From the IMG/VR virus record IMGVR_UViG_2930666980_000001, positions 37,758 to 101,757 of that record: a DNA stretch of 64,000 nucleotides, one strand, 5' to 3'. Shown here piece after piece: positions 3,664 through 18,361 of the stretch. Made by a program: the position numbers and the translations under genes. Under the pieces are notes generated by a model. It made no database searches. It was not told where the DNA came from and saw only the letters and a program-made list of their open reading frames with translations. This DNA is from a virus (lineage: Duplodnaviria > Caudoviricetes). Every line of letters begins with the position of its first letter. The stretch's first letter is position 1.

Positions 3664-3711
3664 CCACCCCGGCCGGGCGACCGCCCGCCCCCGCACCCTC
3701 ATGGAGAACCC

Positions 3712-5088: not shown

Positions 5089-5111
5089 CGCTGCTGGCTA
5101 TGGGCCGGGCG
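5089..5111 (+). promoter_or_regulatory. Conserved leader hairpin motif, copy 1
   Basis: CGCTGCTGGCTATGGGCCGGGCG in the 5' leader of the next gene. Confidence 0.7.
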
Positions 5112-5135
5112 AGAGGTGAACGCATAGGAGTCCCT

Positions 5136-5588
5136 ATGCCGCTCGACCTCCCCATGAACGACTCCCACCGCGCGTACGTCCACGCGGTCGCCGCAGCACT
5201 CAACGCGGCCGGAGTCCCCATCACTGATGTTGACTTCCTTGACGACGTGTTCGATGACGGCGACCCGCTCCGGGGTGCCCTCACCGTCATCGACGCCGCC
5301 AGGACGGCCGCCGCTTACCCCGACCGGATGGTCTGGGCGGAATGGGACGAGCGGGACGGCTGGGACCTCGCGGTCTACGACCCGAAAACGAAGCTGATCG
5401 TGTGCACGCACACCTTGTGCACCGAGGTCCTGCCGGCTCCCGCTGACGTGGCAGCGACCACCGTCGCCGTGCTCGCCGCGCACCCCTCCGCCTCGACCAA
5501 GTTGGAGCGCCCCATCCTCAGCACGTGGAACGAGGCCCTGGAAGAGGCCCTCGACTCCTACACCCGCACCTCGAAGGAGATGGGATGA
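5136..5588 (+). CDS. Hypothetical protein
   Basis: TAGGAG SD before ATG 5136; ATGA overlap with the next gene. Confidence 0.75.
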   Translation: MPLDLPMNDSHRAYVHAVAAALNAAGVPITDVDFLDDVFDDGDPLRGALTVIDAARTAAAYPDRMVWAEWDERDGWDLAVYDPKTKLIVCTHTLCTEVLPAPADVAATTVAVLAAHPSASTKLERPILSTWNEALEEALDSYTRTSKEMG

Positions 5589-5950
5589 GCCTGCCCGACT
5601 ACTTCAAGAATCAGCTGCCGGAGGGCATCCGGCAGATGGTTGACCACCCTGACTTCAACCCGTGGGGCGAGATGGTGGACGCCTACACGCACTGGGCGCA
5701 GTACACCTATCCGATGGACACAGGGGACGGCGATCCGTCGGACACGATGCTGGCCACTGTCATGGGAGTCGAGCCCATGTCGGTCGAGGTGGGCCAGTCG
5801 GTTTGCCTGTACGGAGTGTGGGTTCAGGTGGCGTCTGTGAAAACGGAGACAGAGAAGTCGGTCGACGACGGCCGTCTGATCACGTTCCACACGGTCGAGG
5901 TCCTGCTCAGCGACATCCCGCCCCTCGACGCCGTCGCACCCCCCGCCTGA
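5585..5950 (+). CDS. Hypothetical protein
   Basis: AAGGAG SD; ATGA coupling. Confidence 0.7.
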   Translation: MSLPDYFKNQLPEGIRQMVDHPDFNPWGEMVDAYTHWAQYTYPMDTGDGDPSDTMLATVMGVEPMSVEVGQSVCLYGVWVQVASVKTETEKSVDDGRLITFHTVEVLLSDIPPLDAVAPPA

Positions 5951-5962
5951 CCGCACCCCCTC

Positions 5963-6000
5963 CGAAGGGCCTGCCGGCATCTGCCCGGTGGGCCCTTTCG
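5963..6000 (+). terminator. Probable intrinsic terminator
   Basis: CGAAGGGCC..GGCCCTTTCG stem-loop after the stop codon. Confidence 0.6.
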
Positions 6001-6076
6001 CATGCCCCGGCCCGCCCGGCCGGCATGGGCTTATCCTTCTGCGCCGCAAACCGCCCGCAACCAGGGGATTTCGCTC

Positions 6077-6910
6077 ATGACCACAGCCACCTATGTCCGC
6101 ACGGAGCCGCTCCAGCTCGGCGACCTCTCCCCGTACCCGGGCAACGCGAAGAGGGGCGACGTCGGCGCGATCCTCGAATCCCTCTGCCGTAACGGCCAGT
6201 ACCGCAGCTTGATCGTCCGCGAGGCCCCGCCGGGGGAGTACACCGTCCTCGCGGGCAACCACACGCTCCAGGCCCTCGCCGCCCACGGCCCCGGCCCCTG
6301 CGGCCTCACCGTCAAGGTCGACGGCGAGGAACGCCCCTGCGCCGTCTGCCGCGGCGAGGAGTGGGAGCCGCAGGCCCGTTGCGAGATCGTCCACTGCGAC
6401 GTCGACACCGCCCGCCGCGTGAACCTCGTCGACAACCGCACCGCCGAGCTCGGCGACTGGGACGAGGAGGCACTCGCCGAGCTCCTCGGCCAGCTCGGCG
6501 ACGACATGGGCGGGACCGGCTACGACACCGGAGACCTCGAGGACCTGCTCACCGCCCTCGAGGACGCGACCGACGCCCCCGACGACGAGGACGAGGACCA
6601 GGAGCAGCCCGGCGGCCCCGGCGCCGGTGACGGCGACCGCCCCGCATCGCCCGGCCCGAACGCGGACGGCACTTCGACGCTCCCGCCCGGCCAAGTGCAG
6701 ATGGTGCTGACGTACACCGTCGCCGACCGCGACGAGGCCGCCCGGCTCATCTCCTCCGCCCGCGAGCAGGCATACGAGGCGGCCGGAGCACCGGAGGTCA
6801 TCCTCAACGCGCTCCGCGGCCTCGCCGCCATCCTCCGCCACCGCGAACACCCGGACCGCGCCGTCACCGTGGCGCAGCTCCTGCGCGCTGCCGGCATCAC
6901 CACCGAGTGA
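6077..6910 (+). CDS. ParB/Srx N-terminal domain protein (paralog 1)
   Basis: LSPYPGNAKRGDV..ESL..NGQYRSLIV..VLAGNHT.QA..DNRTAELGDWD. Confidence 0.85.
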   Translation: MTTATYVRTEPLQLGDLSPYPGNAKRGDVGAILESLCRNGQYRSLIVREAPPGEYTVLAGNHTLQALAAHGPGPCGLTVKVDGEERPCAVCRGEEWEPQARCEIVHCDVDTARRVNLVDNRTAELGDWDEEALAELLGQLGDDMGGTGYDTGDLEDLLTALEDATDAPDDEDEDQEQPGGPGAGDGDRPASPGPNADGTSTLPPGQVQMVLTYTVADRDEAARLISSAREQAYEAAGAPEVILNALRGLAAILRHREHPDRAVTVAQLLRAAGITTE

Positions 6911-6923
6911 AGGCGAGACGACC

Positions 6924-7700
6924 ATGACGACCGTCCTCCTGCCCCCGCCCACCACGACCCGCCCCGCCGTCCCACGGCCCCGTCGACCACGGCGGCCGAA
7001 CAGGCTCCTCGGCCAGAACAGCGAGATGCGCGCCGACGGCGTATGGAACTGGACGCTCCCGGCCCTCGCGACCCGCCTCCCAGACGGCCGGACCGTCAAC
7101 ACCTGCCCGGCCGCCGGAGTCTGCGCCCTCGCCTGTTACGCGAGGTCAGGGGCTTACCGCTTCCCCAACGTCGTCGCCCGCCACCAACAGAACCTGGAGT
7201 ACGTCCTCGACGACCTCCCCGGCTGGCAACGGCAGATGGCGGCCGAGCTCGCCCACCCCCGATACCGCGGCGGCTGGATCCGCGTACACGACTCAGGGGA
7301 CTTTTTCAGCGACCACTACCTCGCCGCCTGGCTCCGTCTGATGGCCTTCCGACCAGCCGTTTCCTACTACTGCTACACCAAGGAAGTCCGGCGGTTCCGC
7401 CGTCTCGTCGAGCCCGCTCCGCCCCGCAACTTCCGCTGGGTCTACAGCAAGGGCGGCAAGGAGGACCACCTCCTGCGGCCGGGCGACCGCGTCGCCGACG
7501 TCTTCACCGACGACGCCGCGATCAGGGCAGCGGGCTACCACTCCCAGGACGCCAGCGACCTCCTCGCCGTCCTCGGCCCCGCCCCCGTCGGCATCCCGGC
7601 GAACAACATCCCCCAGTACCGGAAGCGCATGGCCGGCAGGAGCTTCGGCGAATGGCAGGCAGAGCGCGACGCCAAGCGCGCCAGCAGGCACCCCGGCTGA
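6924..7700 (+). CDS. Gp88-family (radical-SAM-like Fe-S) protein
   Basis: WNWTLPA..TCPAAGVCALACYA..IRVHDSGDFFS..YCYTK. Confidence 0.8.
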   Translation: MTTVLLPPPTTTRPAVPRPRRPRRPNRLLGQNSEMRADGVWNWTLPALATRLPDGRTVNTCPAAGVCALACYARSGAYRFPNVVARHQQNLEYVLDDLPGWQRQMAAELAHPRYRGGWIRVHDSGDFFSDHYLAAWLRLMAFRPAVSYYCYTKEVRRFRRLVEPAPPRNFRWVYSKGGKEDHLLRPGDRVADVFTDDAAIRAAGYHSQDASDLLAVLGPAPVGIPANNIPQYRKRMAGRSFGEWQAERDAKRASRHPG

Positions 7701-7779
7701 CCCTCCGTCTGCTCGCCGGGAGGGCCCGACGGGCCATGCCCTTATCCTTCTGCGCCCCGCCCGCACCGAACCCGTGGAT

Positions 7780-8745
7780 ATGACCATGAGCCAGGCCACA
7801 TACGTACGAACCGCCGAAGTCCCCATCGACCGACTCCAGCTCTTCCCCGGCAACGCGAAGAAGGGCGACATCCCGGCCATCCTCGACAGCCTCCGCCGCA
7901 ACGCCCAGTACCGGTCGGTCGTCGCGCGGCAGCAGAAGAAGACCCTCACGATCCTCGCGGGCAACAACACGCTCCTTGCCCTCCGCGAGCACGGCCCCGG
8001 CGACTGCGGCGTCACCTTCACCAGCGGAGGCGAGACCCTCCCGTGCGGCCTCTGCCGCAACACCGCGGCGTACAAGCCGACCCTCCGCACGGAGGTCTAC
8101 GAGTGCGACGACGACACCGCCCGCCGCATCAACCTCGCCGACAACAAGACCAGCGACGCCGGCACGTATGACGATGCTGCGCTGGCCGAGCTGCTCTCTG
8201 GCCTCGACGGCCTCGAGGGCACGGCGTACGACACCGACGAGCTCGACGAGCTCCTGAAAGCGACCGGCGCCCTCGGCGACGCCAGCAGCGAGTTCCTCAA
8301 CTCCTTCATCGACCCGGACCCGCAGCCGACACCCACGCAGCCCGTGCCGGCAGGCGCCCCGGCCCTCAACCCGTTCTCAGCCGCTGACGTCCCGGCCGGG
8401 GCCCCGCAGACCGGCCCGGCCTCCTCGCTCCCGCAGACGGCCGCAGAAGGCGACCAGGAGCCCGCGACGGCGACCGCCCCGGCCCCGCACTCCCCGGGCG
8501 TCCACACCGGCCCGGAGGCCTACAGCGGCCCCGGCGCCCGCATGCACCCCGGTGACCCCATCGCCCTCCCCGAGACGCCGCAGATGGTCCCGCTGCAATG
8601 GGTGTTCACCCTCGATCAGCGCGACACCGTCCGCGCCGCGATCAAGGCCGAGCAGGCAGCCGGAGGCCACGACACCGCCGCCCTCGCCCTCACCGCCATC
8701 TGCCGCGCCTACGTCGACGCCGCGACCCCCAGCGAGGACCAGTGA
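7780..8745 (+). CDS. ParB/Srx N-terminal domain protein (paralog 2)
   Basis: LQLFPGNAKKGDI..NAQYRSVV..ILAGNNT..ADNKTSDAGTYD; Pro/Ala-rich linker; start could be 7786. Confidence 0.85.
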   Translation: MTMSQATYVRTAEVPIDRLQLFPGNAKKGDIPAILDSLRRNAQYRSVVARQQKKTLTILAGNNTLLALREHGPGDCGVTFTSGGETLPCGLCRNTAAYKPTLRTEVYECDDDTARRINLADNKTSDAGTYDDAALAELLSGLDGLEGTAYDTDELDELLKATGALGDASSEFLNSFIDPDPQPTPTQPVPAGAPALNPFSAADVPAGAPQTGPASSLPQTAAEGDQEPATATAPAPHSPGVHTGPEAYSGPGARMHPGDPIALPETPQMVPLQWVFTLDQRDTVRAAIKAEQAAGGHDTAALALTAICRAYVDAATPSEDQ

Positions 8746-9836
8746 CCGACCTCTCCCTGCTCCGCGGCCACCGCTGGCCCCCACACCCGACCCCCCAGGC
8801 CAACCACGCCGTCACGTCCGCCCTGTACTCCAGGGAGTGGACCGGCGGCCGGTACACCCGGGCCGCCGAGGACGCCCTCCGCGAACTGACCGGCGCCCCG
8901 CACGCCGTGGCGTTCCAGTCCTGCACCGCCGCGATCCACGCCGCGCTCCTCGCACACGGCGCCCGAGACGGCACCCCGCTCCACACCCCTGCCTTCGGCT
9001 TCGCCGGCACGCTCACCGGTGCCTCGCACATCGGGATGCGCCTGCTGTACCACGACGTCGACCCGGACACGGGCAACAGCATCGACCCGGCTGCAGCACC
9101 CGGCGCCCTCGTCCTCACCCCGGACCTGCACGGAGTGCCCCACACCCTGCCCCGCGCCGACGTCATCACCGACGCCTGCCAGGCCCTCGGCACGCTCGTC
9201 GACGGCCGGCACGTCGGAGCCGTCGGCACGCACTGCTGGTCGTTCTCGGCGACCAAGCTCGTCAGCGCCCCCGACGGCGGAGCCGTGACGACCGAAGACG
9301 AGGGCCTCGCCGACATCCTGCGGCAGCTCCGCGACTACGGAGCCGAGCCCGGGCCCGCCCGCGCCAACGCGAGGATCACCCGGCCCGGGCACAACTGGCG
9401 GCCCTCCGAACTGTCGATGGCGCTCGTCGCGGAGGAACTGACCTACCGCCTGCCCGACGCCGCCGCCCGCGCCCGCGAGGTCGGCGAGCAGGTACGCCAG
9501 ACCCTCGCCGACGTCGGCCTCTGGCACCAGCAGGTCCCTGCCGGCACCGAACCGGCCTTCCACAAGCTCCGCACCGGCCTCCCCGGCCAGAGCACGACCG
9601 CCCTCCGCGCGGCCCTCGCCGGTCTGAACGTCCCCACCCACGACTGGGGACGCCACCCGCTCCCCACGCACCCGCAGTTCTGGGAGCCCGGCCCGGAGCC
9701 GGACATCGCCGCGGCGGCCGAGCTCGCTGCCGGCACCTTCTGCCTGGGCACCGAAGCCTGCCCGCCCTGGACCTGGACGGCGGACGAGACAGACCTCGTC
9801 TGCATCACCATCGAAACGATCATGGAGTCCCTGTGA
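8742..9836 (+). CDS. DegT/DnrJ/EryC1/StrS-family PLP aminotransferase
   Basis: SCTAAIHAAL, DACQALG, SFSATK (PLP lysine), DGGAVTT, GHNWR; GTGA coupling. Confidence 0.88.
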   Translation: MTDLSLLRGHRWPPHPTPQANHAVTSALYSREWTGGRYTRAAEDALRELTGAPHAVAFQSCTAAIHAALLAHGARDGTPLHTPAFGFAGTLTGASHIGMRLLYHDVDPDTGNSIDPAAAPGALVLTPDLHGVPHTLPRADVITDACQALGTLVDGRHVGAVGTHCWSFSATKLVSAPDGGAVTTEDEGLADILRQLRDYGAEPGPARANARITRPGHNWRPSELSMALVAEELTYRLPDAAARAREVGEQVRQTLADVGLWHQQVPAGTEPAFHKLRTGLPGQSTTALRAALAGLNVPTHDWGRHPLPTHPQFWEPGPEPDIAAAAELAAGTFCLGTEACPPWTWTADETDLVCITIETIMESL

Positions 9837-10942
9837 ACCGCACCGCCCGCATCGGCATCATCGGCGTCGGCAACTGCGCCCGCGCCCTCCTCGAGGGCAT
9901 CGGCTACTACACCGCGCACCCGGAGGACGAGACCGGCCTCTCCCACCCGGTCATCGGCGGATACACCCCGGCCGACGTCGAGCCCGTCGCCGCCTGGGAC
10001 GTCGACGCCGACAAGGTCGGCCGCAACCTCTGGGACGCCCGCACCGCAGGACAGAACCTCGACGTCGGTATCCCGCAGGGCGACCTCAAGCCCGTCGGCC
10101 TGGACGTCACCGTGCAGCCTGCTCCCGCCCTCGACGGTGCCGGCATCAAGTACCGGGAGCGCATCACCACCGTCGAGGACACCGAGGAGCTCCCCGAGCA
10201 GGAAGCCGCCCGGATCCGCGCGGAGATCCTCGCGTCCGGCGTCCAGGTCCTCGTCAACTACCTGCCCGTCGGCTCGCAGAAGGCCACCGAGTGGTGGGCG
10301 CAGATCGCCCTCGACACCGGCGTCGCCTTCGTCAACAACATCCCCGTCTTCATCGCCCGCAACGAGGAGTGGCGCGCCCGCTTCCGTGACGCGAACCTTC
10401 CGCTGATCGGCGACGACATCAAGAGCCAACTCGGCGCGACGTACGTGCACCGCGTCCTCGCCCGCGCGTTCTCCGACCGGGGCATCACCCTCGACCGGAC
10501 GTACCAGCTGAACGTCGGCGGCAACATGGACTTCTACAACATGCTCGAGGCCGACCGCCTCGCCACGAAGCGCGTGTCCAAGTCGTCCGCCGTCACCGAC
10601 GCCTACGCCGGAGACCTCGAGCCCGGCAACGTCCACATCGGCCCCTCCGACTACGTCGCCTTCCTCGGCGACACGAAGAAGGCGTTCATCCGCTGCGAGG
10701 GCCGCGGCTTCGCCGGAGCCCGCATCGACATGGAGATGCAGCTCACCGTCCCCGACTCCCCGAACAGTGCCGGCATCGTCATCGACGCCGTGCGCATCGC
10801 GAAGACCGCCCTCGACCGCGGCGAAGCCGGGGCCGACCAGTGGGCCTCAGCCTGGCTCTTCAAGGCCCCGCCGCGCACCGTCGCCGAGGACAGCGACGGC
10901 GAAGCCCGCCGCCGCCTCGACGCCTGGCTGAACGAGGCCTGA
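9833..10942 (+). CDS. ino1: Myo-inositol-1-phosphate synthase
   Basis: GVGNCA Rossmann motif, LVNYLPVGSQ, GDDIKSQLGAT, QLNVGGNMDFYNM, HIGPSDYV, DSPNSAG. Confidence 0.95.
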   Translation: MNRTARIGIIGVGNCARALLEGIGYYTAHPEDETGLSHPVIGGYTPADVEPVAAWDVDADKVGRNLWDARTAGQNLDVGIPQGDLKPVGLDVTVQPAPALDGAGIKYRERITTVEDTEELPEQEAARIRAEILASGVQVLVNYLPVGSQKATEWWAQIALDTGVAFVNNIPVFIARNEEWRARFRDANLPLIGDDIKSQLGATYVHRVLARAFSDRGITLDRTYQLNVGGNMDFYNMLEADRLATKRVSKSSAVTDAYAGDLEPGNVHIGPSDYVAFLGDTKKAFIRCEGRGFAGARIDMEMQLTVPDSPNSAGIVIDAVRIAKTALDRGEAGADQWASAWLFKAPPRTVAEDSDGEARRRLDAWLNEA

Positions 10943-10943
10943 C

Positions 10944-11744
10944 ATGCGACGAGTCCTCAAAGCCAAGTCCGCGTACAGCAACGACGACGTCCAGCGCGTA
11001 TGGGAGTCGATCACCGACTACGTCACCGAGGAGGAGGCGGCCCAAGCCGTCGAGGAGGCGGCAGCGGAAACCCGCCTCGTCCTCGACGGCCGCACCGACG
11101 ACGCCGTGTACGGCTGGTCAGGCGGCAAGGACTCGATCGCCCTCGAGGTCGTGATGGAGCGTGCCGGGGTCCGGCGCGCCCTCCTCGGCACGCTCCCGCA
11201 CCTCGAGTTCACCGCCTACATGACGTGGGTCGACGAGCACCAGCCCGACGGCCTCACCCACCTCGGCAACAAGGCCATCACCCCGGCCTGGCTCGCCAAG
11301 CCGCAGAACGACCGCTACCTCTTCCCCACCTCCAGCACCGACGGCTACCGCTGGACGATGATCGGCACCCGCTGGTCCCAACACCTCTACCAGGAGCAGC
11401 ACAAGCCCCGACTCCAGGTCTACGGACGCCGGACCGCCGACGGCAACAGCATCCCCGCCACCCCGTACGGCATCCACAAGACGAGCCGCCTCACCTCGTA
11501 CTGCCCGATCCGCGCCTGGTCGCACGAGCTCGTCCTCGCCGTCATCCACTACAACCGGCGTCCCCTGCCGCCCGTGTACGGCTTCCCGAACGGCTGGAAG
11601 ACCGGCACAGGCTCCTGGCCCGGGCGCCGCGTCGGCGACCGCGATGCCTCCTTCGCCGAGACGTACGCGATCGAGCCCGCCCTCCTGCAGAACGCCGCCC
11701 CGGACCTGCCGGCAGCGGCCGACTGGCTTCGCCGCAACACCTGA
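10944..11744 (+). CDS. PAPS-reductase/PP-loop family protein (short form)
   Basis: WSGGKDS PP-loop, YGRRTADG, CPIRAWS..V. Confidence 0.8.
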   Translation: MRRVLKAKSAYSNDDVQRVWESITDYVTEEEAAQAVEEAAAETRLVLDGRTDDAVYGWSGGKDSIALEVVMERAGVRRALLGTLPHLEFTAYMTWVDEHQPDGLTHLGNKAITPAWLAKPQNDRYLFPTSSTDGYRWTMIGTRWSQHLYQEQHKPRLQVYGRRTADGNSIPATPYGIHKTSRLTSYCPIRAWSHELVLAVIHYNRRPLPPVYGFPNGWKTGTGSWPGRRVGDRDASFAETYAIEPALLQNAAPDLPAAADWLRRNT

Positions 11745-11775
11745 CACCACCACGTCCAGCGTGGGGAAGGACTAC

Positions 11776-13155
11776 ATGACCGATTGGCTCTCAGGCGGCT
11801 GGCTCCCGGAGGGGACGCCCATCGATGCCGAGCACGTCCGCGGCTACGTCGCCAAGTTCACCCTTCCCCGCCTCGCTGCCGGCAGCGACGTCTACACCCT
11901 CGCCTGCGAGCGCATGGCGTACGTCCTCGACCACCACGACCGGGCCTTCGTCGCGTTCTCCGGCGGGAAGGACTCGACGGCCGTCCTCAACGTCGCCCTC
12001 GAGGTCGCCAACCGGGAGCCCCGCCTACAGCGTCACCTCCCGCTGCGCGTCGTCTTCTTCGACGAGGAGGCGATCCCGCAGGAGACCGAGGACTACGTCC
12101 GGCGCGTCTTCGCCCGGCCCGACGTCGCCGGTGAATGGCTCTGCCTGCCCGTCCAGCACCGCAACGCCTGCTCCAGGACGTCCCCGTACTGGTGGCCCTG
12201 GGCGCCGGAGGACGAGCCGAAGTGGTGCCGCCCCCTCCCGCCGGAGGCGATCACGACCCTGCCCGGCTTCCCCGTCTGGCCCCCGGAGGAGCGCCTCACG
12301 ATCCCGAACCTGAACGGCCTCCTCGCGCCGCCCCCGCACACCACGGCCACGCTCATGGGGATCCGCGCGCAGGAGTCCCGGATCCGGGCCCTCGCCGTCC
12401 GCCGCCGCGCCGTCGACAACTACATCGTCAAGCACGCCCACGGCCGGGACCGGCAGGCCGCCGCCGTCGACAACGGCAACGTCTGGAAGGCCTACCCGAT
12501 CTACGACTGGCGGACCGAAGACGTCTGGGCCGCCGCACGCGTCCACGGCTGGGACTACAACAAGGCCTACGACCTGATGGAGATGGCGGGGGTCACACCC
12601 GCCATGCAGCGCTGCTCACCCGCGTTCGGCGAGGAGCCCCTGCAGAAGATCCACATGTACGCCCAGTGCTTCCCCGACGTCTGGGCACGGATGTCCGAGC
12701 GCGTCCCCGGCGTCGGCGCCGCAGCCCGCTACGCGTCCACCGAGCTCTACGGCTTCGGCGCCAAGAAGCCCGAGAAGCCCGCCGGCATGCCCTGGCCGGA
12801 GTTCATCACCCGCTACCTCGCCAAGCACGGGCCGAAGGAGCAGCGCACCATCGCGGCCCGGATCAGCGAGGCCCTCACCCGGCACTACCGGATGACCACC
12901 GACCCGATCCTCCCGCGGTCGCCTCACCCGGTCACCGGCCTCAACTGGAAGTACCTCCTCGTCCTCGCCATGCGCGGCGACTTCAAGCACCGCCGCCAGG
13001 AGGTCAAGCAGCTCATGGACGGTGACGCCGCCTCGTACTGGCGGAAGTACACCGCCGAGCTCGCCGAGCTCCTCGCCGCCGGGGTCACCGCCGACGAGCT
13101 CGGCCACCCCCGCCCGCTCCCCACCGACCCCCACGCGCTCACCCCGACCACCTGA
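11776..13155 (+). CDS. YbdN/IbrA-like PAPS-reductase-family protein (copy 1)
   Basis: FSGGKDS, FFDEEA, GIRAQES.R, YPIYDWRTEDVW, YNKAYDLM, W..M.ERVPG. Confidence 0.9.
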   Translation: MTDWLSGGWLPEGTPIDAEHVRGYVAKFTLPRLAAGSDVYTLACERMAYVLDHHDRAFVAFSGGKDSTAVLNVALEVANREPRLQRHLPLRVVFFDEEAIPQETEDYVRRVFARPDVAGEWLCLPVQHRNACSRTSPYWWPWAPEDEPKWCRPLPPEAITTLPGFPVWPPEERLTIPNLNGLLAPPPHTTATLMGIRAQESRIRALAVRRRAVDNYIVKHAHGRDRQAAAVDNGNVWKAYPIYDWRTEDVWAAARVHGWDYNKAYDLMEMAGVTPAMQRCSPAFGEEPLQKIHMYAQCFPDVWARMSERVPGVGAAARYASTELYGFGAKKPEKPAGMPWPEFITRYLAKHGPKEQRTIAARISEALTRHYRMTTDPILPRSPHPVTGLNWKYLLVLAMRGDFKHRRQEVKQLMDGDAASYWRKYTAELAELLAAGVTADELGHPRPLPTDPHALTPTT

Positions 13156-13179
13156 ACCAGCAGGAAGGACATCGGCGAC

Positions 13180-14568
13180 ATGACCACCGACCAGCCGGAC
13201 GGCTGGCTGCCCGAGGGACAGCGGCTCGACGTCTACGACACCGACTACGTCCCCAAGCAGAACCGGCCCCGCCTCGCCGCACGGGCCGACGTCTGGACCA
13301 TGGCGTGCGAGCGCATGGCCTACGTCCTCGACACCCATGACCGGGCCTTCGTCTCGTTCTCCGGCGGGAAGGACAGCACGGCCGTCCTGAACGTCGCCCT
13401 GCACGTCCTGAACCGTGAGCCGTCGCTGCGCCGGCATCTCCCGCTCAGGGTCGTCTTCTTCGACGAGGAGGCCATCCCGCAGGAGACCGAGGACTACGTT
13501 CGCCGCGTCGGGCAGCGCGACGACGTCAGCCTTGAGTGGTACTGCCTGCCCGTCCAGCACCGCAACGCCTGCTCGAGGCGGTCGCCGTACTGGTGGCCCT
13601 GGGCGCCGGAGGACGAAGCGAAGTGGTGCCGCCCCCTCCCACCGGAGGCCCTCACGTCCCTGCCCGGCTTCCCCCTCTGGCCCCCGGAGGCGCGCCTCAC
13701 GATCCCGAACCTCAACGGGCTCCTCGGCCCGGCGCCGCACACCACGGCCTGCCTCATGGGGATCCGCGCGCAGGAGTCCCTCATCCGCGCGCACGCCGTC
13801 CGGCTCCGCTCCGTCGACAACTACATCGTCAAGTACGACAACTCGAAGAACCGGCAGGCCGCTTCGGTCAACCACGGCAACATGTGGAAGGCCTACCCGA
13901 TCTACGACTGGCGCACCGAAGACGTCTGGGCGGCGACCCGCCTGCACGGCTGGGACTACAACAAGGCCTATGACCTGATGGAGATGGCCGGCATCGGCCC
14001 GTCCGGTCAGCGCTGCTCACCGGCCTTCGGCGAGGAGCCCCTCCAGAAGATCCACATGTACGCGCAGTGCTTCCCCGACGTCTGGGGGCGTATGGCCGAG
14101 CGCGTCCCCGGCATCGGCGCCGCCTACCGCTACGCCCGCACCGAGCTCTACGGCTACGGAGGGAAGCCCCCCAAGCCTCCGGGGCAGACCTGGCCGGAGT
14201 TCATCGCCCACTACGTCCGGAAGCACGGCCCCGACGTCCAGCCGAAGGTGGCCGGCAGGATCGCCGACGTCATGGCCCGGCACTACCGGAAGACGGCGCA
14301 CCCGATCCTCCCGAAGGCCCCGCACCCGGACACCGGCCTCAACTGGTCCTTCCTCCTGACCCTCGCGATGCGCGGCGACTTCAAGCAGCGCCGGCAGGAG
14401 TCCAACCAGCTCATGTCCAAGAGCACGGCCGAGCACTGGACGCGGTACACCACCGAGCTCGCCCAGGTCCTCGCCGACGGCACCGGCCCGGAGCTCGGCC
14501 ACCCCCGCCCCCTCCCGACGGACGCGTACGCGATCGTCCCCGACCAGTACAAGGAGCCCACCCAGTGA
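13180..14568 (+). CDS. YbdN/IbrA-like PAPS-reductase-family protein (copy 2)
   Basis: Same motifs; long blocks identical to copy 1. Confidence 0.9.
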   Translation: MTTDQPDGWLPEGQRLDVYDTDYVPKQNRPRLAARADVWTMACERMAYVLDTHDRAFVSFSGGKDSTAVLNVALHVLNREPSLRRHLPLRVVFFDEEAIPQETEDYVRRVGQRDDVSLEWYCLPVQHRNACSRRSPYWWPWAPEDEAKWCRPLPPEALTSLPGFPLWPPEARLTIPNLNGLLGPAPHTTACLMGIRAQESLIRAHAVRLRSVDNYIVKYDNSKNRQAASVNHGNMWKAYPIYDWRTEDVWAATRLHGWDYNKAYDLMEMAGIGPSGQRCSPAFGEEPLQKIHMYAQCFPDVWGRMAERVPGIGAAYRYARTELYGYGGKPPKPPGQTWPEFIAHYVRKHGPDVQPKVAGRIADVMARHYRKTAHPILPKAPHPDTGLNWSFLLTLAMRGDFKQRRQESNQLMSKSTAEHWTRYTTELAQVLADGTGPELGHPRPLPTDAYAIVPDQYKEPTQ

Positions 14569-15110
14569 CCACCCCGGCCGCCCCGTTCCGCGCCCCTGTC
14601 GGCGCCGACCAGCAGCCCGTCAGCGCCGTCCAGTGGATGCCGCGCGAGCAGCTCACCGCGAATCAGTGGAACCCCAACGTCCAGGCGCCCCCGGAGCACC
14701 GCCTCTTGAAGACGTCACTCCTCGAGAACGGATGGACGCAGCCGATCGTCGCCCGCGACCAGGCCGACGGCACGTACGAGGTCGTCGACGGCTTCCACCG
14801 CTGGACGATCGCCGCAGACCCGGACGTCGCCGCCCTCTCCGCCGGGCTCGTCCCCGTCGTCGTCCTCCCGCCCACGGACGCCGCGACGGCCCGGATGGCG
14901 ACCGTCCGGCACAACCGGGCCCGCGGTACCCACCACGTCCTCGGCATGGCGGAGATCGTCACTGACCTCCTCGAGCTCGGCGTCACCCCGGCCGACATCA
15001 GCGCCCGCCTCGAGATGGACCCGGAGGAGGTCGACCGCCTCGCCGACCGGGGCAACATGATCGCCCGTCACGCCCCGGAGACCTTCAACCAGGGCTGGAC
15101 CGTCGGCTAA
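14565..15110 (+). CDS. YbdM/IbrB-like ParB domain protein
   Basis: QPVSAVQW..ANQWNPN..ENGWTQPIV..VVDGFHRW..TVRHNRARGTH. Confidence 0.9.
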   Translation: MTTPAAPFRAPVGADQQPVSAVQWMPREQLTANQWNPNVQAPPEHRLLKTSLLENGWTQPIVARDQADGTYEVVDGFHRWTIAADPDVAALSAGLVPVVVLPPTDAATARMATVRHNRARGTHHVLGMAEIVTDLLELGVTPADISARLEMDPEEVDRLADRGNMIARHAPETFNQGWTVG

Positions 15111-15171
15111 CCGCCGGCACGCCCCTACGGCCCCACCCAGCCCCCGCCCCGCTACCTACAGGAGCAGACGC

Positions 15172-15897
15172 ATGCCCAACACGATGAAGGTCGCCCCGGA
15201 CGACGAGAACGAGGTCCACGACGTCCTCGCCTTCCGCGACCCCGGCAACTGTCACGTCACCCCGGTCCTCCAGCTCCCCCCGGACATCGCCCTCGCGATC
15301 ACCGACCGCCTCCGGCACCTGGTGCAGTCCGCGCACCGCTCCCCGGCCGCGACGAGCCCCGACGCCGACGGGATCACACGGGCGCAGACCTTCGAGGAGG
15401 GCGACGTCTACATGCTCGCCGCCCCGTACGAGCAGTACGAGGCAGACCGGTACCTCATGGACTTCTACGACGTCATCGACCGCGACATCTGCTCACGGAT
15501 GCACCTGCACACCGGTCTCCGCTTCGTACGGATGATGACTGGCCCCGACACCCGCATCCGCGTCAGCAGCCTCGCCCCGATCCGGGTAACCGACGTCGAC
15601 GGCGTCACCACCTTCCGCCCGGAGACCTTCGAGGACGACCACCCCGACGTCCCCGCCGGACACCAGCGGACCCGCTACAACCTCGTCGTCCCCCCGAACT
15701 CCTGGGCCGACATGCAGGTCCCGCGCGGCGTCTCCCACCAGTTCAACGCCCACGGCCCCCACGCCGTCATCGACTCCGTCCACCCGGAGGAGTCCATCGA
15801 GACGTTCCGCGAGCGCATGAGCGGCTTCAAGATGATGGCGCAGACGATCTTCCTCGCCGACGAGCAGCCCGCCGCCGACTCCTGCCGACTCACCTGA
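15172..15897 (+). CDS. Cupin-like protein
   Basis: SRMHLHTG..VPRGVSHQF metal-binding pattern; AGGAG SD. Confidence 0.6.
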   Translation: MPNTMKVAPDDENEVHDVLAFRDPGNCHVTPVLQLPPDIALAITDRLRHLVQSAHRSPAATSPDADGITRAQTFEEGDVYMLAAPYEQYEADRYLMDFYDVIDRDICSRMHLHTGLRFVRMMTGPDTRIRVSSLAPIRVTDVDGVTTFRPETFEDDHPDVPAGHQRTRYNLVVPPNSWADMQVPRGVSHQFNAHGPHAVIDSVHPEESIETFRERMSGFKMMAQTIFLADEQPAADSCRLT

Positions 15898-16264
15898 CCC
15901 GTCCCACGCGGCCCCTCGACGACCGCGCCCCTACGGCCCGCCCCGGAGACCCCCGCGGCGGGCCGTCCCCGTCCACGGCCCTCTGACCAGGCCCGGGGCT
16001 ATCCTCTCTCGCCGCCGACCACCCGCGACCAGGGGAGCCCCGCAATGACCCGCACCCCCCTACCGCACCCCTCGCCCACCCTCCACCGGGTACCCCCGCA
16101 CCCTCCACACCCCTACGCCGACCCACCGCACCGACCCCGCGCACGCCCCGACCCCCACCAAGATCAACACCGCCCGCCACATACACCCAGGTCAACAGCC
16201 CACGCCCGCTAGTTGAAACACAAACGTGGACACAAACCCGCCCCCACGAGACGAGGAGAGACCC

Positions 16265-16696
16265 ATGGGCGCCTCCCCCCGGCAACGACTGTCCGCCGTC
16301 GAGCGCCGCACCCAGGCCCTACAGCTGCACCTGGCGTGCGTCGACCTCCGCACCATCGCGAAACAGGTCGGCTACGCCGACGCCTCCGCCGCCAAGAAGG
16401 CCATCGACCGCGCCATCGCGGACAGCATCGCCCGCGGCGAAGAGAAGATCGACGACATCCGGCGCGAGCAGATCATGCGGTACCACCGTCTCCAGGCCGC
16501 CCACTGGGGCAAGGCCATCAAGGGCGACACCAAGGCGAGCGACATCGTCCTCAAGTGCATGCAGGGCACCGAGCGCCTCCAGGACCTCGCCTCGCCCAAG
16601 CGCATCAGCATCGACGCCCAGAAGCTCGGCGACGAGATCCTCGCCATCCTCGGCGACGATGCCGGCAGCGACGACGAGGCCGGAGCAGCGCCGTGA
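16265..16696 (+). CDS. Probable terminase small subunit (HTH)
   Basis: RRTQALQL..IAKQVGY HTH; directly upstream of TerL; GAGGAG SD. Confidence 0.7.
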   Translation: MGASPRQRLSAVERRTQALQLHLACVDLRTIAKQVGYADASAAKKAIDRAIADSIARGEEKIDDIRREQIMRYHRLQAAHWGKAIKGDTKASDIVLKCMQGTERLQDLASPKRISIDAQKLGDEILAILGDDAGSDDEAGAAP

Positions 16697-16738
16697 CCGA
16701 CCAGTCCGGCCGGTCCCGGCCGGGGGAGGGGCGACAGG

Positions 16739-18361
16739 ATGCCGACCACCGAGGAGATTGAGCGCCAGGTCCTCGCGCTCGTCCGGGCGGGCGACGTCGC
16801 GACGCTCCGCCTGGTCCGGGACCGTCTCGCCTCGCGGCGTAGCAGCGCGTCCGCCCAGCGGGCCGTCAAGTACATGTACGACCCTGTCGGCTGGGTACGG
16901 GACGTCATCGACTGGCAGCCCGGGGAAGGGCTCGCCGCCTACCAGGAGGACGTCCTCAGCCTGCTCGCCAGGGAGCGCCGTGTCGCGGCCCGCGGACCGC
17001 ACGGTCTGGGGAAGACCGGCATGGCCGCGCTCGGCGTCCTCTGGTTCGCGACGACCCGCGACGCTGCCGGCATCGACTGGAAGGTCCTGACGACCGCCTC
17101 CGCCTGGCGGCACCTCTCCGTCTACCTGTTCCCGGAGATCCACAAGTGGGCGAGGCGCATCAAGTGGGAGATGCTCGGCCGCCCGCCGTTCCGGGAGAAC
17201 GCCGAGCTCCTGGTCCACAACATCAAGCTCAGGTACGGGGCGGCGTCCGCGGTCGCCTCGACGAAGCCGGAGCTGATCGAGGGCGCGCACGCGGACAGCC
17301 TGCTCTACCTGATCGATGAGGCGAAGATCGTCCCCGATGGCACCTGGGACGCCATTGAAGGGGCCTTCTCCGGCGGTAAGACGTCCGGGCTCCCGGAGGC
17401 CTTCGTCTTCGCTATCTCGACGCCTGGGCCCCCGTCAGGGCGCTTCTACGACATCCACAGCAGGAAGCCGGGGTTCGAGGACTGGTTCGTACGGCACGTC
17501 ACCCTCGCTGAGGCGGTCGCTGCCGGCCGGATCTCCCCAGACTGGGCGGAGCAGCGCGCCCGCCAGTGGGGGCGAGACTCCGCGATCTACGCCAACCGTG
17601 TCCTCGGCGAGTTCCACGCGTCCGACGAGGACAGCGTCATCCCCCTGTCCTGGGTCGAGGCCGCCGTCGAGCGCTGGCACCTGTGGGACCAGGCCGGGCG
17701 GCCGGCACTCGAGGGGCGTCAGTTCCTCGGCGTCGACGTCGCACGCGCCGGGGGAGACTCCACCGTCCTCGCGTACCGGACCGGCCTCGCGTACACCGAG
17801 CTCGAGACGCACGACCGCGAGGACACCATGGAGACGACCGCCCGCGTCCAGGCCGCCGTGGGCCGCCGCCCGGGCACCGTGCCGGTCGTCGACTCGATGG
17901 GCGTCGGCGGTGGCGTCGTCGACCGCCTCAGGGAGCTCGACGAGCCGGTCCTCGCCTACACCGGAGCAGCGAAGTCCCGCATGCGGTCGAGAGACGGAGA
18001 GTGGGGCTTCAACAACACCAGGAGCGCCGCCTACTGGCGCACCCGGGAGCTCCTCGACCCCGCTTTCGACCCGACGCTGATGCTCCCGCCGGATGACCTC
18101 CTGCTCGCCGACCTGACCGCCCCGACATGGGCGGTCAAGACCGGCCGCCCCCCGACGATCCAGATCGAGCCGAAGGACGACCTGATCAAGCGGCTCGGCC
18201 GCTCCCCCGACCGTGGGGACGCCGTCGTGATGGGCCTGTACGCCGAGCTGCTCGCCTCGACGACCGTGCAGAACCCGGCCAGGGCCGGCACGGGCAGCAC
18301 GGCCGCAGCCAGCAAGTACGGGCGAACCATCGGCGGCACGTCGGCGGCACGAGGCCGGTGA
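16739..18361 (+). CDS. terL: Terminase large subunit
   Basis: Walker A GPHGLGKT, Walker B LIDEA, ISTP motif, RNase H GVDVA..GDST and RSPDRGDA. Confidence 0.93.
   Translation: MPTTEEIERQVLALVRAGDVATLRLVRDRLASRRSSASAQRAVKYMYDPVGWVRDVIDWQPGEGLAAYQEDVLSLLARERRVAARGPHGLGKTGMAALGVLWFATTRDAAGIDWKVLTTASAWRHLSVYLFPEIHKWARRIKWEMLGRPPFRENAELLVHNIKLRYGAASAVASTKPELIEGAHADSLLYLIDEAKIVPDGTWDAIEGAFSGGKTSGLPEAFVFAISTPGPPSGRFYDIHSRKPGFEDWFVRHVTLAEAVAAGRISPDWAEQRARQWGRDSAIYANRVLGEFHASDEDSVIPLSWVEAAVERWHLWDQAGRPALEGRQFLGVDVARAGGDSTVLAYRTGLAYTELETHDREDTMETTARVQAAVGRRPGTVPVVDSMGVGGGVVDRLRELDEPVLAYTGAAKSRMRSRDGEWGFNNTRSAAYWRTRELLDPAFDPTLMLPPDDLLLADLTAPTWAVKTGRPPTIQIEPKDDLIKRLGRSPDRGDAVVMGLYAELLASTTVQNPARAGTGSTAAASKYGRTIGGTSAARGR

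Follow-up and report, generated by a model that had tools for sequence, protein, structure and literature searches.

Gene content and organization of the locus

The window analysed (64,000 nt; positions 37,758 to 101,757 of IMG/VR record IMGVR_UViG_2930666980_000001) belonged to a Streptomyces-type prophage of 101,757 bp (~101.8 kb). GC3-based gene calling on this 71% GC sequence gave exactly ten plus-strand genes between positions 6077 and 15897, in the order ParB, GP88, ParB, DegT, Ino1, PPs, IbrA, IbrA, IbrB and cupin, followed by terS and terL (Table 1). Start and stop codons overlapped as GTGA at ParB2/DegT, DegT/Ino1 and IbrA2/IbrB, and a single base separated the Ino1 stop from the ATG of PPs, bearing out the sequence-only reading, which had described ten co-oriented, mostly abutting or coupled genes ahead of terS/terL. 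The terminator-like hairpin just upstream was the sole plus-strand site of its kind between positions 5000 and 17000, with none inside the block, and possibly marks the 5' boundary of the transcription unit. The ten genes are best explained as a single operon, expressed late, of a temperate Streptomyces-type phage of about 100 kb.

The terL gene shared 75.5% DNA identity with the gene annotated as terminase in Streptomyces phage TurkishDelight, and its product had a weak Terminase_6N match (E 0.03). The putative terS gave no significant match in the family search; it preceded terL likewise in L004, L005, L039, L040 and L041.

Table 1. Predicted features of the ten-gene block and its flanks (window coordinates).
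Feature	Position	Strand	Evidence
Terminator-like hairpin	6014..6030	+	Consensus match only; just 5' of the block
ParB-fold protein 1 (277 aa)	6077..6910	+	phrog_723, E 2e-47
GP88 family protein (258 aa)	6924..7700	+	PF17338, E 4e-55
ParB-fold protein 2 (323 aa)	7774..8745	+	phrog_723, E 2e-39
DegT/DnrJ/EryC1-family PLP aminotransferase, DegT (364 aa)	8742..9836	+	PF01041, E 4e-43
Myo-inositol-3-phosphate synthase family protein, Ino1 (369 aa)	9833..10942	+	PF01658, E 2e-31
Small PAPS-reductase-like PP-loop ATP pyrophosphatase, PPs (266 aa)	10944..11744	+	SGGKDS at residue 59; phrog_424 'PAPS reductase', E 5e-9
IbrA copy 1, PAPS_reduct + DUF3440	11761..13155	+	PF01507, PF11922; phrog_2302, E 3e-79
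IbrA copy 2, PAPS_reduct + DUF3440 (IbrA/YbdN architecture)	13180..14568	+	PF01507, PF11922
IbrB-type ParB/Srx-fold protein (181 aa)	14565..15110	+	PF02195 (ParB_N), E 4e-7; phrog_2159, E 2e-57
Highly conserved cupin-fold protein (241 aa)	15172..15897	+	phrog_28683, E 4e-121; AlphaFold model
Putative small terminase subunit (terS)	16265..16696	+	Position, size, conservation in relatives
Large terminase subunit (terL)	16739..18361	+	DNA identity to TurkishDelight terminase

Predicted functions of the encoded proteins

Ino1 matched the Mycobacterium tuberculosis enzyme (1gr0) at E 2e-98 and scored 369.6 bits against TIGR03450, under the 638-bit equivalog cut-off (NCBIfam). The family includes a synthase for another cyclitol, the five-membered-cyclitol-phosphate synthase 6k96 (E 2e-48), which counts against an inositol-based reading. 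DegT adjoined Ino1 in 5/5 loci and carried the lysine motif SFSATK, with K172 invariant in all five orthologues. Its best solved relatives were ArnB (E 7e-22) and the glutamine:scyllo-inositol transaminase 7b0d (E 1e-12), and it matched the PseC model at E 2e-30, compared with E 1e-12 to 1e-6 for the solved inosose aminotransferases (7b0d, 5w70, 2c7t). Assignment of DegT as an inosose aminotransferase had been proposed; such enzymes do occur among its matches, but judging from these scores the protein is closer to NDP-sugar aminotransferases of the ArnB/PseC type. StrO, which had been named as a precedent, is a phosphatase and not an aminotransferase. Overall, the enzymes look intact, given the Ino1 match to 1gr0, the DegT lysine motif and the SGGKDS motif kept by all three PP-loop proteins.

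No inositol monophosphatase (PF00459) or Gfo/Idh/MocA dehydrogenase (PF01408) was found in the 101,757-bp provirus, control genomes being positive, so that the earlier observation that neither enzyme was visible holds over the whole element; this absence counts against the proposed route. GP88, the cupin or host enzymes had been suggested as stand-ins for these steps. Neither GP88 nor the cupin is specific to the inositol branch. GP88 (1475 homologues; C67 and C71 invariant, C61 nearly so) occurred in three of the five Ino1-type loci, and in phage Gilgamesh it lies in a structural module. Its AF2 model (pLDDT 75) had no Foldseek match at E <= 1e-3 and reached Z <= 5.8 in VIA, where the top rows include many radical-SAM enzymes; the protein is possibly an Fe-S or radical-SAM-like enzyme, and its role in the cassette is uncertain. 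The cupin had no Pfam match, and its AlphaFold model (pLDDT 86) matched cupins only (16 Foldseek matches with E <= 1e-3; every one of the 50 VIA rows listed, Z 7.2-9.4). The best 120 of its 472 homologues were all >= 67% identical and came from several phyla, with H111, H113, H189 and N192 invariant; some homologues carry an acyl carrier protein fusion (P0092, P0099). Of 13 loci with the cupin, 12 had PPs, IbrA or IbrB no more than 8 kb away, and the cupin accompanies the cassette in phages lacking Ino1 and DegT.

ParB-fold protein 1, which had no Pfam match, was 52% identical to TurkishDelight gp121, annotated as a 'ParB-like nuclease domain protein'. ParB-fold protein 2 is its paralogue (N-terminal 160-161 residues 52% identical), with a low-complexity C-terminal half.

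PPs also had no Pfam match, and its SGGKDS motif was invariant across the family (444 representative clusters; mostly ~250-290 aa among 150 listed). A profile of 38 members retrieved TtuA, PAPS reductases and CysD at E 1e-5 to 1e-4 and GMP synthase at E 0.006; by sequence, PPs is not a member of the asparagine synthetase B, GMP synthase, NAD synthetase or TilS families. Its nearest solved relatives are sulfur enzymes, at a weak E of 1e-5, which counts against reading it as an amine ligase. The two IbrA copies were 74% identical and both kept SGGKDS (residue 67 in copy 1); copy 2 had no solved relative at E <= 0.1. IbrA homologues are annotated as such in Streptococcus and Escherichia phages, and no biochemical function for IbrA/IbrB was found in the literature searched.

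Distribution of the cassette and its variable supplier slot

The linkage of ino1 and degT to PP-loop and ParB genes in related phages had been named beforehand as a point on which the hypermodification proposal could fail. It was kept in all four IMG/VR contigs retrieved with the Ino1 protein (65-81% identity), each with DegT-Ino1 linked to PPs-IbrA-IbrB. Among 37 PPs-bearing loci, IbrA was present in 35 and IbrB in 33 (tblastn); ParB-fold proteins were invariably part of the cassette, which was placed at the terminase genes. The PPs-IbrA-IbrB core, with ParB-fold proteins and often a cupin before the terminase, is thus a widespread phage cassette.

The gene adjoining PPs varies, and its types are almost mutually exclusive. 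Scoring genes <= 2.6 kb from PPs in the 37 loci gave a solute importer in 17 (15 SSF, two ABC), a class-II glutamine amidotransferase (GATase) in 10, DegT+Ino1 in five and none in five. The GATase, which starts M-C-G or V-C-G and matches GATase_6, lay directly beside PPs in all 10 loci and never co-occurred with an importer or with DegT+Ino1 (0/37); L007 was the only locus with both SSF and DegT+Ino1. In the PPs tree, the five DegT+Ino1 loci formed one clade (SH-aLRT 100; stem length 1.15 substitutions per site) embedded in PPs linked to GATases or importers. The sister phages L040 and L041, whose terL is 71% identical, have the cassette but not DegT+Ino1; the pair is therefore an exchangeable accessory, which counts against the proposed function. 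The three PP-loop proteins are not equivalent: IbrA is the universal core, whereas PPs varies together with the gene that supplies nitrogen or substrate. Fusions of PPs to GATase or to DegT were looked for and not found, which also counts against the proposed function.

TurkishDelight is collinear with the provirus in four upstream proteins and both ParB genes. Its slot held ParB, ParB, a C5-cytosine-methylase homologue (SPPC; CmoX-like), a GATase+Asn_synthase ligase and a SAM-methyltransferase-like (CmoA-like) gene, an architecture of CmoX, GATase-bearing ligase cluster and CmoA that has been described (PMC12783734). L061 and L062 possessed a CmoX/CmoA-type set in which a 279-aa PP-loop domain (SGGVDS) lacking a GATase serves as the ligase, with DegT and Ino1 directly after it. 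The exchange of GATase for DegT+Ino1 thus appears to recur independently within a CmoX/CmoA-type cytosine hypermodification set.

Ino1 was also found beside other DNA-modification genes. The L060 cluster encoded a 5-hmdU DNA kinase, GIY-YIG, Ino1, ADDT and a DSP phosphatase; in Caulobacter phage Cr30, ADDT (E 1e-52) lay two genes before Ino1; and the deazaguanine cluster of Stenotrophomonas phage Marzo combined GTP cyclohydrolase I, Ino1 and QueC, along with genes named queuine tRNA-ribosyltransferase and QueC-like by the depositors. The proximity of Ino1 to 5-hmdU kinase and ADDT points to several routes by which DNA may receive inositol-derived groups. Ralstonia phage RP13 encoded Ino1 with no recognisable modification gene nearby, which counts against a role of Ino1 in DNA modification.

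Proposed function and alternative explanations

DegT and Ino1 are proposed to be the supplier pair for PPs in this provirus, a place taken elsewhere by a GATase (ammonia) or a membrane importer, and PPs is proposed to act as an amine ligase. The slot exchanges and the TurkishDelight set support the handing of an inositol-derived amine to a PP-loop ligase in the setting of DNA modification, and thereby support in part the earlier proposal of aminocyclitol DNA hypermodification. That the pair supplies an inositol-derived amine which PPs ligates, most likely onto phage DNA, is given about an even chance on this comparative evidence. If true, an inositol-derived amine would represent a type of DNA decoration that is new; no description of an inositol-amine cassette was found in the literature searched.

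We infer every step of the route as follows, the part checked being the intactness of the sequence motifs. Ino1 would cyclise glucose-6-phosphate to inositol-3-phosphate, and the keto form (inosose) would arise through a host phosphatase and dehydrogenase or through release of Ino1's own inosose-phosphate intermediate. DegT would transaminate inosose to inosamine, possibly with the phosphate retained. PPs would then use ATP to adenylate an acceptor group, from which the amine would displace AMP, as in asparagine synthetase, TilS and CmoY-type ligases. The acceptor most likely lies on phage DNA, where IbrA/IbrB and the ParB proteins would create or display it at a late stage of infection; the gene position would place the attachment during packaging. 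Packaged DNA bearing a bulky aminocyclitol would block host nucleases. The provirus had no known DNA handle of the ThyA-like, TGT or C5-methylase kind; therefore the cassette itself would have to act on DNA.

A Dnd/Ssp-like sulfur transfer placing a phosphorothioate or thio-base on DNA, or an anti-Dnd measure, in which IbrA takes the role of DndC, IbrB that of DndB and the PLP enzyme that of DndA, with inositol incidental, is considered very unlikely. DndC was the only named match of IbrA (27-28 bits), TtuA and PAPS reductase are the nearest relatives of PPs, DndB belongs to the ParB superfamily (PMC12839542), and a phage PAPS reductase is stated to promote Dnd evasion (PMC13551039, citing Piel et al. 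2022). However, the IbrA score lies far under the DndC cut-off (26.7 vs 290 bits), models of DndA, DndD and DndE matched none of the ten proteins, the PLP enzyme clearly belongs to the DegT family and is no desulfurase, being present in only 5/37 loci, and the GATase and importer neighbours of PPs indicate nitrogen or imported substrates and no sulfur relay. Ino1 and DegT could also be ordinary auxiliary metabolic genes providing inositol for mycothiol or phosphatidylinositol, or an amino sugar, with the IbrA/IbrB cassette independent of them. The resemblance of Ino1 to the actinobacterial mycothiol-pathway enzyme (TIGR03450, 1gr0), the absence of the pair from L040 and L041 and the uninformative context in RP13 fit such a role, which is nonetheless quite unlikely: the pair is translationally coupled to ParB2 and PPs, it sits exactly where the GATase or importer adjoins PPs and excludes the GATase, the PPs proteins of its loci form a separate long-branched clade, Ino1 is better conserved than terL (81% vs 71% identity with L004), and four further types of DNA-modification neighbourhood also contain Ino1.

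Alternatively, the enzymes may cooperate while the amine goes to a virion or host protein, tRNA, a nucleotide-pool metabolite, the envelope or a diffusible aminocyclitol. Ino1 followed by a DegT-family enzyme opens aminocyclitol antibiotic synthesis, tRNA or small molecules are the substrates of the solved enzymes most similar to PPs, importers in 17/37 loci point to small-molecule traffic whose destination they do not indicate, and the acyl carrier protein fusions of cupin homologues fit the same picture. A non-DNA acceptor is still judged unlikely, given the constant ParB-fold proteins and terminase position, the DNA cytosine-modification set filling the same slot in syntenic TurkishDelight, DegT+Ino1 following the ligase of a CmoX-type DNA system, Ino1 near ADDT and 5-hmdU kinase, and a block with no further antibiotic-type tailoring or export genes (Pfam, ten genes).

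Comparison with known systems

Aminocyclitol antibiotic pathways include those of streptomycin (StsC), butirosin (BtrS/BtrN) and hygromycin A. Like the provirus pair, they join inositol-phosphate synthase chemistry to a DegT-family transaminase, but the block encodes neither a kinase nor an amidinotransferase or glycosyltransferase, phosphatase and dehydrogenase are absent from the provirus, and the pair belongs to a packaging operon that also encodes ParB proteins. Asparagine synthetase B, GMP synthase and NAD synthetase each combine a glutamine amidotransferase with a PP-loop synthetase, and TilS is an amine-ligating PP-loop enzyme. PPs shares the PP-loop motif with these two-part amidotransferases, adjoins a class-II GATase in 10 loci and weakly matches GMP synthase (E 0.006); it differs in its best matches (TtuA/PAPS reductase, E 1e-5) and in the replacement of the GATase by DegT+Ino1 here.

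Dnd phosphorothioation likewise combines, in a setting directed at DNA, a ParB-fold protein and a PP-loop enzyme of the PAPS-reductase family, but the cassette is a phage late operon and not a host defence island, with no DndA, DndD or DndE among its ten proteins. The thymidine hypermodification enzymes 5-hmdU DNA kinase (HMUDK_hel) and amino acid:DNA transferase (ADDT), which Ino1 adjoins in L060 and Cr30, were not found by Pfam (HMUDK, ADDT) in the ten cluster genes and ten flanking genes, and the provirus has no ThyA-like hydroxymethylase. In the CmoA-CmoX-CmoY pathway for 5-carboxymethylcytosine of Synechococcus phage S-B43 (Yang et al. 2025, PMC12783734), an ATP-dependent ligase joins an amine to finish DNA hypermodification, as proposed for the cassette, and ParB-domain neighbours are frequent; the main text of the paper makes no mention of inositol or an aminotransferase. 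In contrast to that pathway, the provirus has no C5-methylase homologue, the block has no CmoA-like gene, and PPs is a PAPS-reductase-like PP-loop protein, not an AMP-forming ligase or Asn-synthase type.

IbrA/IbrB of E. coli (K-12 paralogues YbdN/YbdM) share with the cassette a PAPS_reduct + DUF3440 gene followed by an overlapping ParB_N gene, and phage pairs annotated 'PAPS reductase' and 'ParB-like' (phrog_2302 + phrog_2159) occupy the same pre-terminase position, as in vB_RanS_PJN03. To such IbrA/IbrB pairs the provirus adds a second IbrA, PPs, two ParB proteins, the cupin, GP88 and DegT+Ino1.

Gene content and organization of the provirus block

The IMG/VR record (101,757 bp, the window covering its bases 37758-101757) is classed as a provirus and estimated to be complete. 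The terL gene of the window shared 75.5% DNA identity with the terminase gene of Streptomyces phage TurkishDelight, four proteins upstream of the block and both ParB genes were collinear between the two genomes, and Streptomyces assemblies encoded close homologues of provirus genes. On this basis, the provirus was taken to be a temperate phage of the Streptomyces type, about 100 kb long.

As a raw ORF list was useless at the 71% G+C of the window (90 mostly spurious ORFs in 16 kb), genes were called by sliding third-position G+C (GC3). This recovered the same ten plus-strand genes as the sequence-only reading, namely ParB, GP88, ParB, DegT, Ino1, a small PP-loop protein (PPs), IbrA1, IbrA2, IbrB and a cupin, followed by a putative terS and by terL, and family searches and predicted folds bore out every label given there. 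Neighbouring genes in the block were coupled, with three GTGA overlaps (IbrA2/IbrB among them) and one junction with a single intervening base. The terminator scan found no plus-strand terminator-like hairpin within the block, and the promoter scan no sigma-70-like promoter in window 5000-17000. When the block was compared with GenBank phages by megablast, the TurkishDelight terminase was the sole match.

Coordinates of the features in the provirus window and in the loci compared with it
Sequence	Coordinates	Feature	Observation
Window	1070-1897	PP2C-like phosphatase	collinear counterpart in TurkishDelight (47.8% identity)
Window	1904-2938	DUF3560 protein	
Window	3100-3663	gene	collinear counterpart in TurkishDelight
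Window	5100-5588	DUF6292 protein	
Window	6077-15897	ten-gene block	plus strand
Window	6924-7700	GP88	PF17338
Window	15172-15897	cupin	
TurkishDelight, NC_073473 (L002)	88490-93518	ParB, ParB and three modification-type genes	at genome end, beside terminase
L006 (contig with Ino1)	11111-12525	extra genes between Ino1 and PPs	two paralogous GT25-like glycosyltransferase relatives
L007 (contig with Ino1)	8748-10806	extra genes between Ino1 and PPs	GT25-like glycosyltransferase relatives; ORF with weak MobA-like nucleotidyltransferase match (E 0.016)
L030 (PPs locus)	8015-9724	ABC permease and NMT1/THI5-like binding protein	in place of the SSF importer
L035 (PPs locus)	5742-7458	ABC permease and NMT1/THI5-like binding protein	in place of the SSF importer
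L060 (contig with Ino1)	171-4312	5-hmdU DNA kinase (E 2e-38), GIY-YIG, Ino1, amino acid:DNA transferase (ADDT), dual-specificity-phosphatase-like gene	genes in a row
Caulobacter phage Cr30, KF301602 (L037)	4729-8176	ADDT homologue (E 1e-52), Ino1	ADDT homologue unannotated, directly upstream of Ino1
Stenotrophomonas phage Marzo, MZ326868 (L036)	6086-11609	GTP cyclohydrolase I, Ino1, QueC	by Pfam; 7-deazaguanine-type cluster

PP-loop proteins and the IbrA/IbrB pair

The pyrophosphate-binding loop of the PP-loop ATP pyrophosphatase superfamily (SGGxDS) was present as SGGKDS, at residue 59 in PPs, 67 in IbrA1 and 61 in IbrA2. Both IbrA copies belonged to the PAPS reductase family (PF01507; 42 bits for IbrA1 and 48 for IbrA2 against a cut-off of 22.5) and also contained PF11922 (DUF3440), and the next gene contained PF02195 (ParB_N), which together form the IbrA/IbrB (YbdN/YbdM) architecture. 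IbrA was common in phages, with matches in 223 GenBank phage records; IbrA2 alone found no solved relative at E <= 0.1.

PPs had no Pfam match but matched phrog_424 (E 5e-9) and, at the profile level, PAPS reductases (E 2e-5). S59, G61, K62 and D63 never varied across 38 diverse PPs sequences, and G60 and S64 were kept in at least 90% of them. Judging from this invariant SGGKDS loop and the profile matches to TtuA and PAPS reductases, PPs is a PP-loop protein. The solved proteins closest to it perform sulfur chemistry, with marginal E-values in the search with the 38-sequence profile; when the profile was built from five sequences, no solved protein matched at E <= 1. Proteins listed in an exhaustive profile search were mostly stand-alone, of about 250-290 aa, and no longer, fused forms were found (weak evidence). 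Because its search patterns were narrow, the search of genome contigs with PPs returned only five loci: Streptomyces sp. NRRL B-1347, with a PPs gene of 78% identity, Actinomadura sp. K4S16, and three MAGs of gut or environmental origin.

In the comparison with Dnd DNA phosphorothioation, the DndC equivalog TIGR03183 scored 26.7-27.1 bits against a cut-off of 290.4 and the PADLOC DndC model 28 bits, and no PADLOC model of the DndA desulfurase, the DndD ATPase or DndE matched any of the ten block proteins at E <= 1e-3. DegT was considered as a stand-in for DndA and dropped, being a clear DegT-family member and occurring in just 5 of the 37 loci. PMC13551039 cites evidence that a phage PAPS reductase acts against Dnd. 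No published IbrA/IbrB chemistry was found in the literature searched, and PMC10853773 makes no mention of IbrA, IbrB, YbdN, DUF3440, terminase or prophage.

Ino1, DegT, GP88 and the cupin

Ino1 belonged to the myo-inositol-3-phosphate synthase family (PF01658, 108.7 bits against a cut-off of 27) and matched the Mycobacterium tuberculosis Ino1 1gr0 over residues 5-354 (E 2e-98). It scored 369.6 bits against TIGR03450, the equivalog of mycothiol-pathway Ino1, short of the 638 cut-off, and also matched 6k96, a five-membered-cyclitol synthase of the same family (E 2e-48), so that its product could differ from that of the mycothiol-pathway enzyme. DegT was likewise a member of its family (PF01041, 148.5 bits), with K172 of the SFSATK motif, which we take to be the PLP-binding lysine, invariant in all five orthologues. 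Among solved aminotransferases, it matched ArnB best (E 7e-22, 81 bits), and the inosose aminotransferases 7b0d (E 1e-12, 51 bits), 5w70 (3e-10) and 2c7t (9e-7) less well. By search scores, DegT was nearer to ArnB/PseC-type NDP-sugar aminotransferases than to the solved inosose aminotransferases, and its substrate may be a phosphorylated, nucleotide-linked or even DNA-linked keto-cyclitol.

Neither an inositol monophosphatase nor an inositol dehydrogenase had been visible in the window, and the search for PF00459 and PF01408 extended this to the whole provirus. Aminocyclitol antibiotic biosynthesis places an inositol-phosphate phosphatase and an inositol dehydrogenase between the synthase and the transaminase, whereas the provirus lacks both. 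Since no inositol-phosphate phosphatase or Gfo/Idh/MocA dehydrogenase is encoded, host enzymes would supply the two steps or, as a pure hypothesis, DegT would take the inosose-phosphate intermediate of Ino1 itself. The suggestion that the cupin or GP88 could replace the missing dehydrogenase or phosphatase was unsupported, both being widespread without Ino1.

The product of the last block gene had no match to Pfam cupin models. Its AlphaFold model was confident (pLDDT 86), cupins made up all Foldseek matches with E <= 1e-3 as well as the 50 VIA rows listed (Z 7.2-9.4), and H111, H113, H189 and N192, which include the histidines of a metal motif, were invariant; the modelled fold, a double-stranded beta-helix, thus identifies it as a cupin, and no assignment as oxygenase, isomerase or lyase was possible from the fold. 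It accompanied the cassette in 12 of 13 loci and was conserved to a degree uncommon among phage genes: of its 472 homologues, the top 120 were at least 67% identical and came from several phyla, with Streptomyces, Deinococcus, Rhodococcus, Nocardia and others represented. Public assemblies of Streptomyces encoded it with 90-95% identity. In the enterobacterial phage vB_RanS_PJN03 (35% G+C), a cupin 60% identical directly followed the portal gene. Two cupin homologues were fused to an acyl carrier protein domain.

GP88 contained a C-x5-C-x3-C arrangement, in which C67 and C71 never varied and C61 was kept in at least 90% of sequences, and also an HDSGDFF motif. Its VIA matches were weak, all with Z below 6, tended towards radical-SAM enzymes and included spore photoproduct lyase (5.8), EpeE (5.7), viperin (5.4) and BtrN (5.3), with STAS domains at the same Z; as Foldseek gave no match at E <= 1e-3, no fold is claimed. 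Because GP88 of another Streptomyces phage lies within the structural module, its membership in the cassette system is uncertain.

Linkage of DegT-Ino1 to the cassette and the variable supplier slot

The IMG/VR search with Ino1 returned four contigs (81, 79, 70 and 65% identity), and that with a DegT alignment nothing beyond the same four. Loss of the linkage between ino1/degT and the PP-loop and ParB genes in relatives would have spoken against the sequence-only reading; all four contigs kept DegT-Ino1 followed by PPs-IbrA-IbrB. The ten-gene order was identical in two of them, one of which had a single IbrA. In L006, ParB, a Cupin_2 protein, DegT, Ino1 and two paralogous proteins preceded PPs, and in L007 (62% G+C) PPs came after an SSF transporter, DegT, Ino1, an ORF with weak similarity to nucleotidyltransferases and ORFs similar to GT25. 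Extra genes thus lay between Ino1 and PPs in two of the five Ino1-type cassettes, and their similarities hint that the cyclitol may be activated with a nucleotide or glycosylated further.

Searches of IMG/VR with PPs and cupin alignments gave, once repeated fetches of one contig were removed, 37 PPs loci with G+C of 36-73%, of which 35 carried IbrA. Each locus was classed by its supplier, defined as the gene within 2.6 kb of PPs.

Supplier classes of the 37 PPs loci; counts overstate independence because of near-copy loci (L011-L014 and the pairs L016/17, L018/19, L028/29 and L040/41)
Supplier	Loci	Detection
SSF (sodium:solute symporter family)	15	PF00474, E 1e-24 to 1e-26 for long forms
Stand-alone class-II glutamine amidotransferase (GATase)	10	starts M-C-G or V-C-G; GATase_6 E 3e-4, below cut-off
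DegT+Ino1	5	tblastn with window proteins
ABC permease + NMT1-like binding protein	2	Pfam
No supplier detected	5	

The GATase never occurred together with an importer or with DegT+Ino1 (0 of 37 loci), and an SSF transporter accompanied DegT+Ino1 in L007 only. The NMT1/THI5-like family binds sulfonates, nitrate or pyrimidine precursors. When all 37 PPs were placed in a quick maximum-likelihood tree, a single clade (SH-aLRT 100, stem of 1.15 changes per site) united those linked to DegT+Ino1, five in number, and was nested among GATase- and importer-linked PPs. Two sister phages (L040 and L041) showed the order ParB-PPs-GATase-IbrA-IbrB-cupin-terS-terL without DegT or Ino1, and their terL was 71% identical to that of the window, as was that of the Ino1 contig L004. 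Taken together, the swapping at the slot, the PPs clade and these sister phages indicate that DegT+Ino1 forms a supplier module that can be exchanged and that goes with PPs rather than with IbrA.

Modification genes around Ino1 in other phages

Ino1 was found in 19 GenBank phage records, three of which were inspected (Marzo, Cr30 and RP13). In Cr30, a weak TET-associated-glycosyltransferase-like gene also lay just before Ino1. For Marzo, the depositor annotation adds a queuine tRNA-ribosyltransferase (TGT) gene and another gene resembling QueC, neither of which had a Pfam match at E <= 1e-3; 16 Stenotrophomonas phage records carried an Ino1 of the Marzo type. Ralstonia phage RP13 had no recognisable modification gene near Ino1. 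The L060 contig, whose ADDT match was just above the cut-off (28 bits), places Ino1 within a thymidine-hypermodification set that includes a candidate phosphatase. No description of inositol-bearing DNA was found in the literature searched, and in the two papers with inositol beside hypermodification terms the word occurs only in names of structural matches.

Two CmoX-type loci (L061 and L062) encoded an Ino1 46% identical to that of the window. Their gene order began with ParB, an SPPC methylase homologue and a 279-aa Asn_synthase/QueC-like PP-loop protein without GATase, and continued with DegT, Ino1, a methyltransferase-like gene and probable terminase genes. In TurkishDelight, the slot from the ParB pair to the terminase contained a homologue of C5-cytosine methylases with the SPPC motif, a protein combining GATase and Asn_synthase (SGGVDS) and a gene similar to SAM methyltransferases. 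A C5-cytosine-methylase (CmoX) homologue was not found in the provirus, PF00145 being absent from its 101,757 bp while nine control genomes gave matches.

Discussion

Asparagine synthetase B, GMP synthase, NAD synthetase and other ATP-dependent amidotransferases classically pair a GATase with a PP-loop enzyme; the PP-loop domain transfers AMP to an oxygen, and ammonia then takes the place of the AMP. Where an aminotransferase and a cyclitol synthase stand in for the GATase, the simplest reading is that an amino-cyclitol has taken over from ammonia as the donor. An independent case of this exchange is found in a DNA-directed system, the CmoX-type set. That DegT and Ino1 provide the donor to PPs is probable.

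The cassette always occurs with ParB-fold proteins and is located at the packaging genes. Together with the cytosine-directed set of TurkishDelight, the hypermodification neighbourhoods of Ino1 and the precedents of DndB and DpdB, ParB-family partners of modification enzymes (PMC12839542), this argues for phage DNA as the target, with a likelihood a little above even. As no ThyA-like gene, TGT or C5 methylase was present in the provirus, any handle on the DNA would have to be provided by IbrA/IbrB or arise when a base is activated directly. Taken as a whole, the reading of an aminocyclitol joined to phage DNA stands at about even chances on these genomic data. The interpretation first drawn from the sequence is supported in part: the linkage, the supplier swap and the DNA-modification neighbourhoods speak for it, and the affinity of DegT to NDP-sugar aminotransferases and the lack of an inositol-phosphate phosphatase and an inositol dehydrogenase in the provirus speak against it.

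More tentatively, and with odds somewhat on the unfavourable side, phage Ino1 may mark a class of inositol- or aminocyclitol-bearing DNA bases built several times on different handles. On this view, PPs of the IbrA/IbrB cassette would act as a general ATP-dependent amine installer, the adjoining gene setting the donor: ammonia from the GATase, an imported compound, or an inosamine. The handles would be the IbrA/IbrB/PPs cassette in the provirus and the four contigs, 5-carboxymethylcytosine with a GATase-less PP-loop ligase in L061 and L062, the 5-hmdU kinase with ADDT in L060 and Cr30, and 7-deazaguanine with QueC-like enzymes in Stenotrophomonas Menderavirus phages.

The exchangeable supplier (GATase, importer or DegT+Ino1) makes the question testable, as sister phages differing only in the supplier module are predicted to show a defined mass difference on the same base. 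If confirmed, the reading would give a first biochemical handle on the IbrA/IbrB "PAPS reductase + ParB" cassette, which annotations routinely mistake for a sulfur-metabolism gene. Bulky, sugar-like additions to DNA bear on restriction and CRISPR evasion and on phage-therapy host range in actinobacteria, and the enzymes could be a source for site-selective DNA labelling.

Among the closest described systems is that of Yang et al. 2025 (PMC12783734), in which CmoA produces carboxy-SAM and CmoX adds a carboxymethyl group to cytosine in DNA; the ligase CmoY then joins glycine to the product as an amide. According to that paper, a glutaminase domain like that of asparagine synthetase is found in a second large cluster of ligases, further clusters may draw on amines not yet identified, and genes with ParB domains often lie nearby; the main text makes no mention of inositol or aminotransferases. 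The TurkishDelight set matches this CmoX / glutaminase-ligase / CmoA architecture, and the DNA of this isolated phage may carry amidated 5-carboxymethylcytosine. An aminocyclitol on DNA would likewise be a phage DNA hypermodification completed by an ATP-dependent ligase, within a class of inositol or aminocyclitol bases itself undescribed, and would, if confirmed, extend the hypermodifications known from phage DNA by a base that bears a cyclitol.
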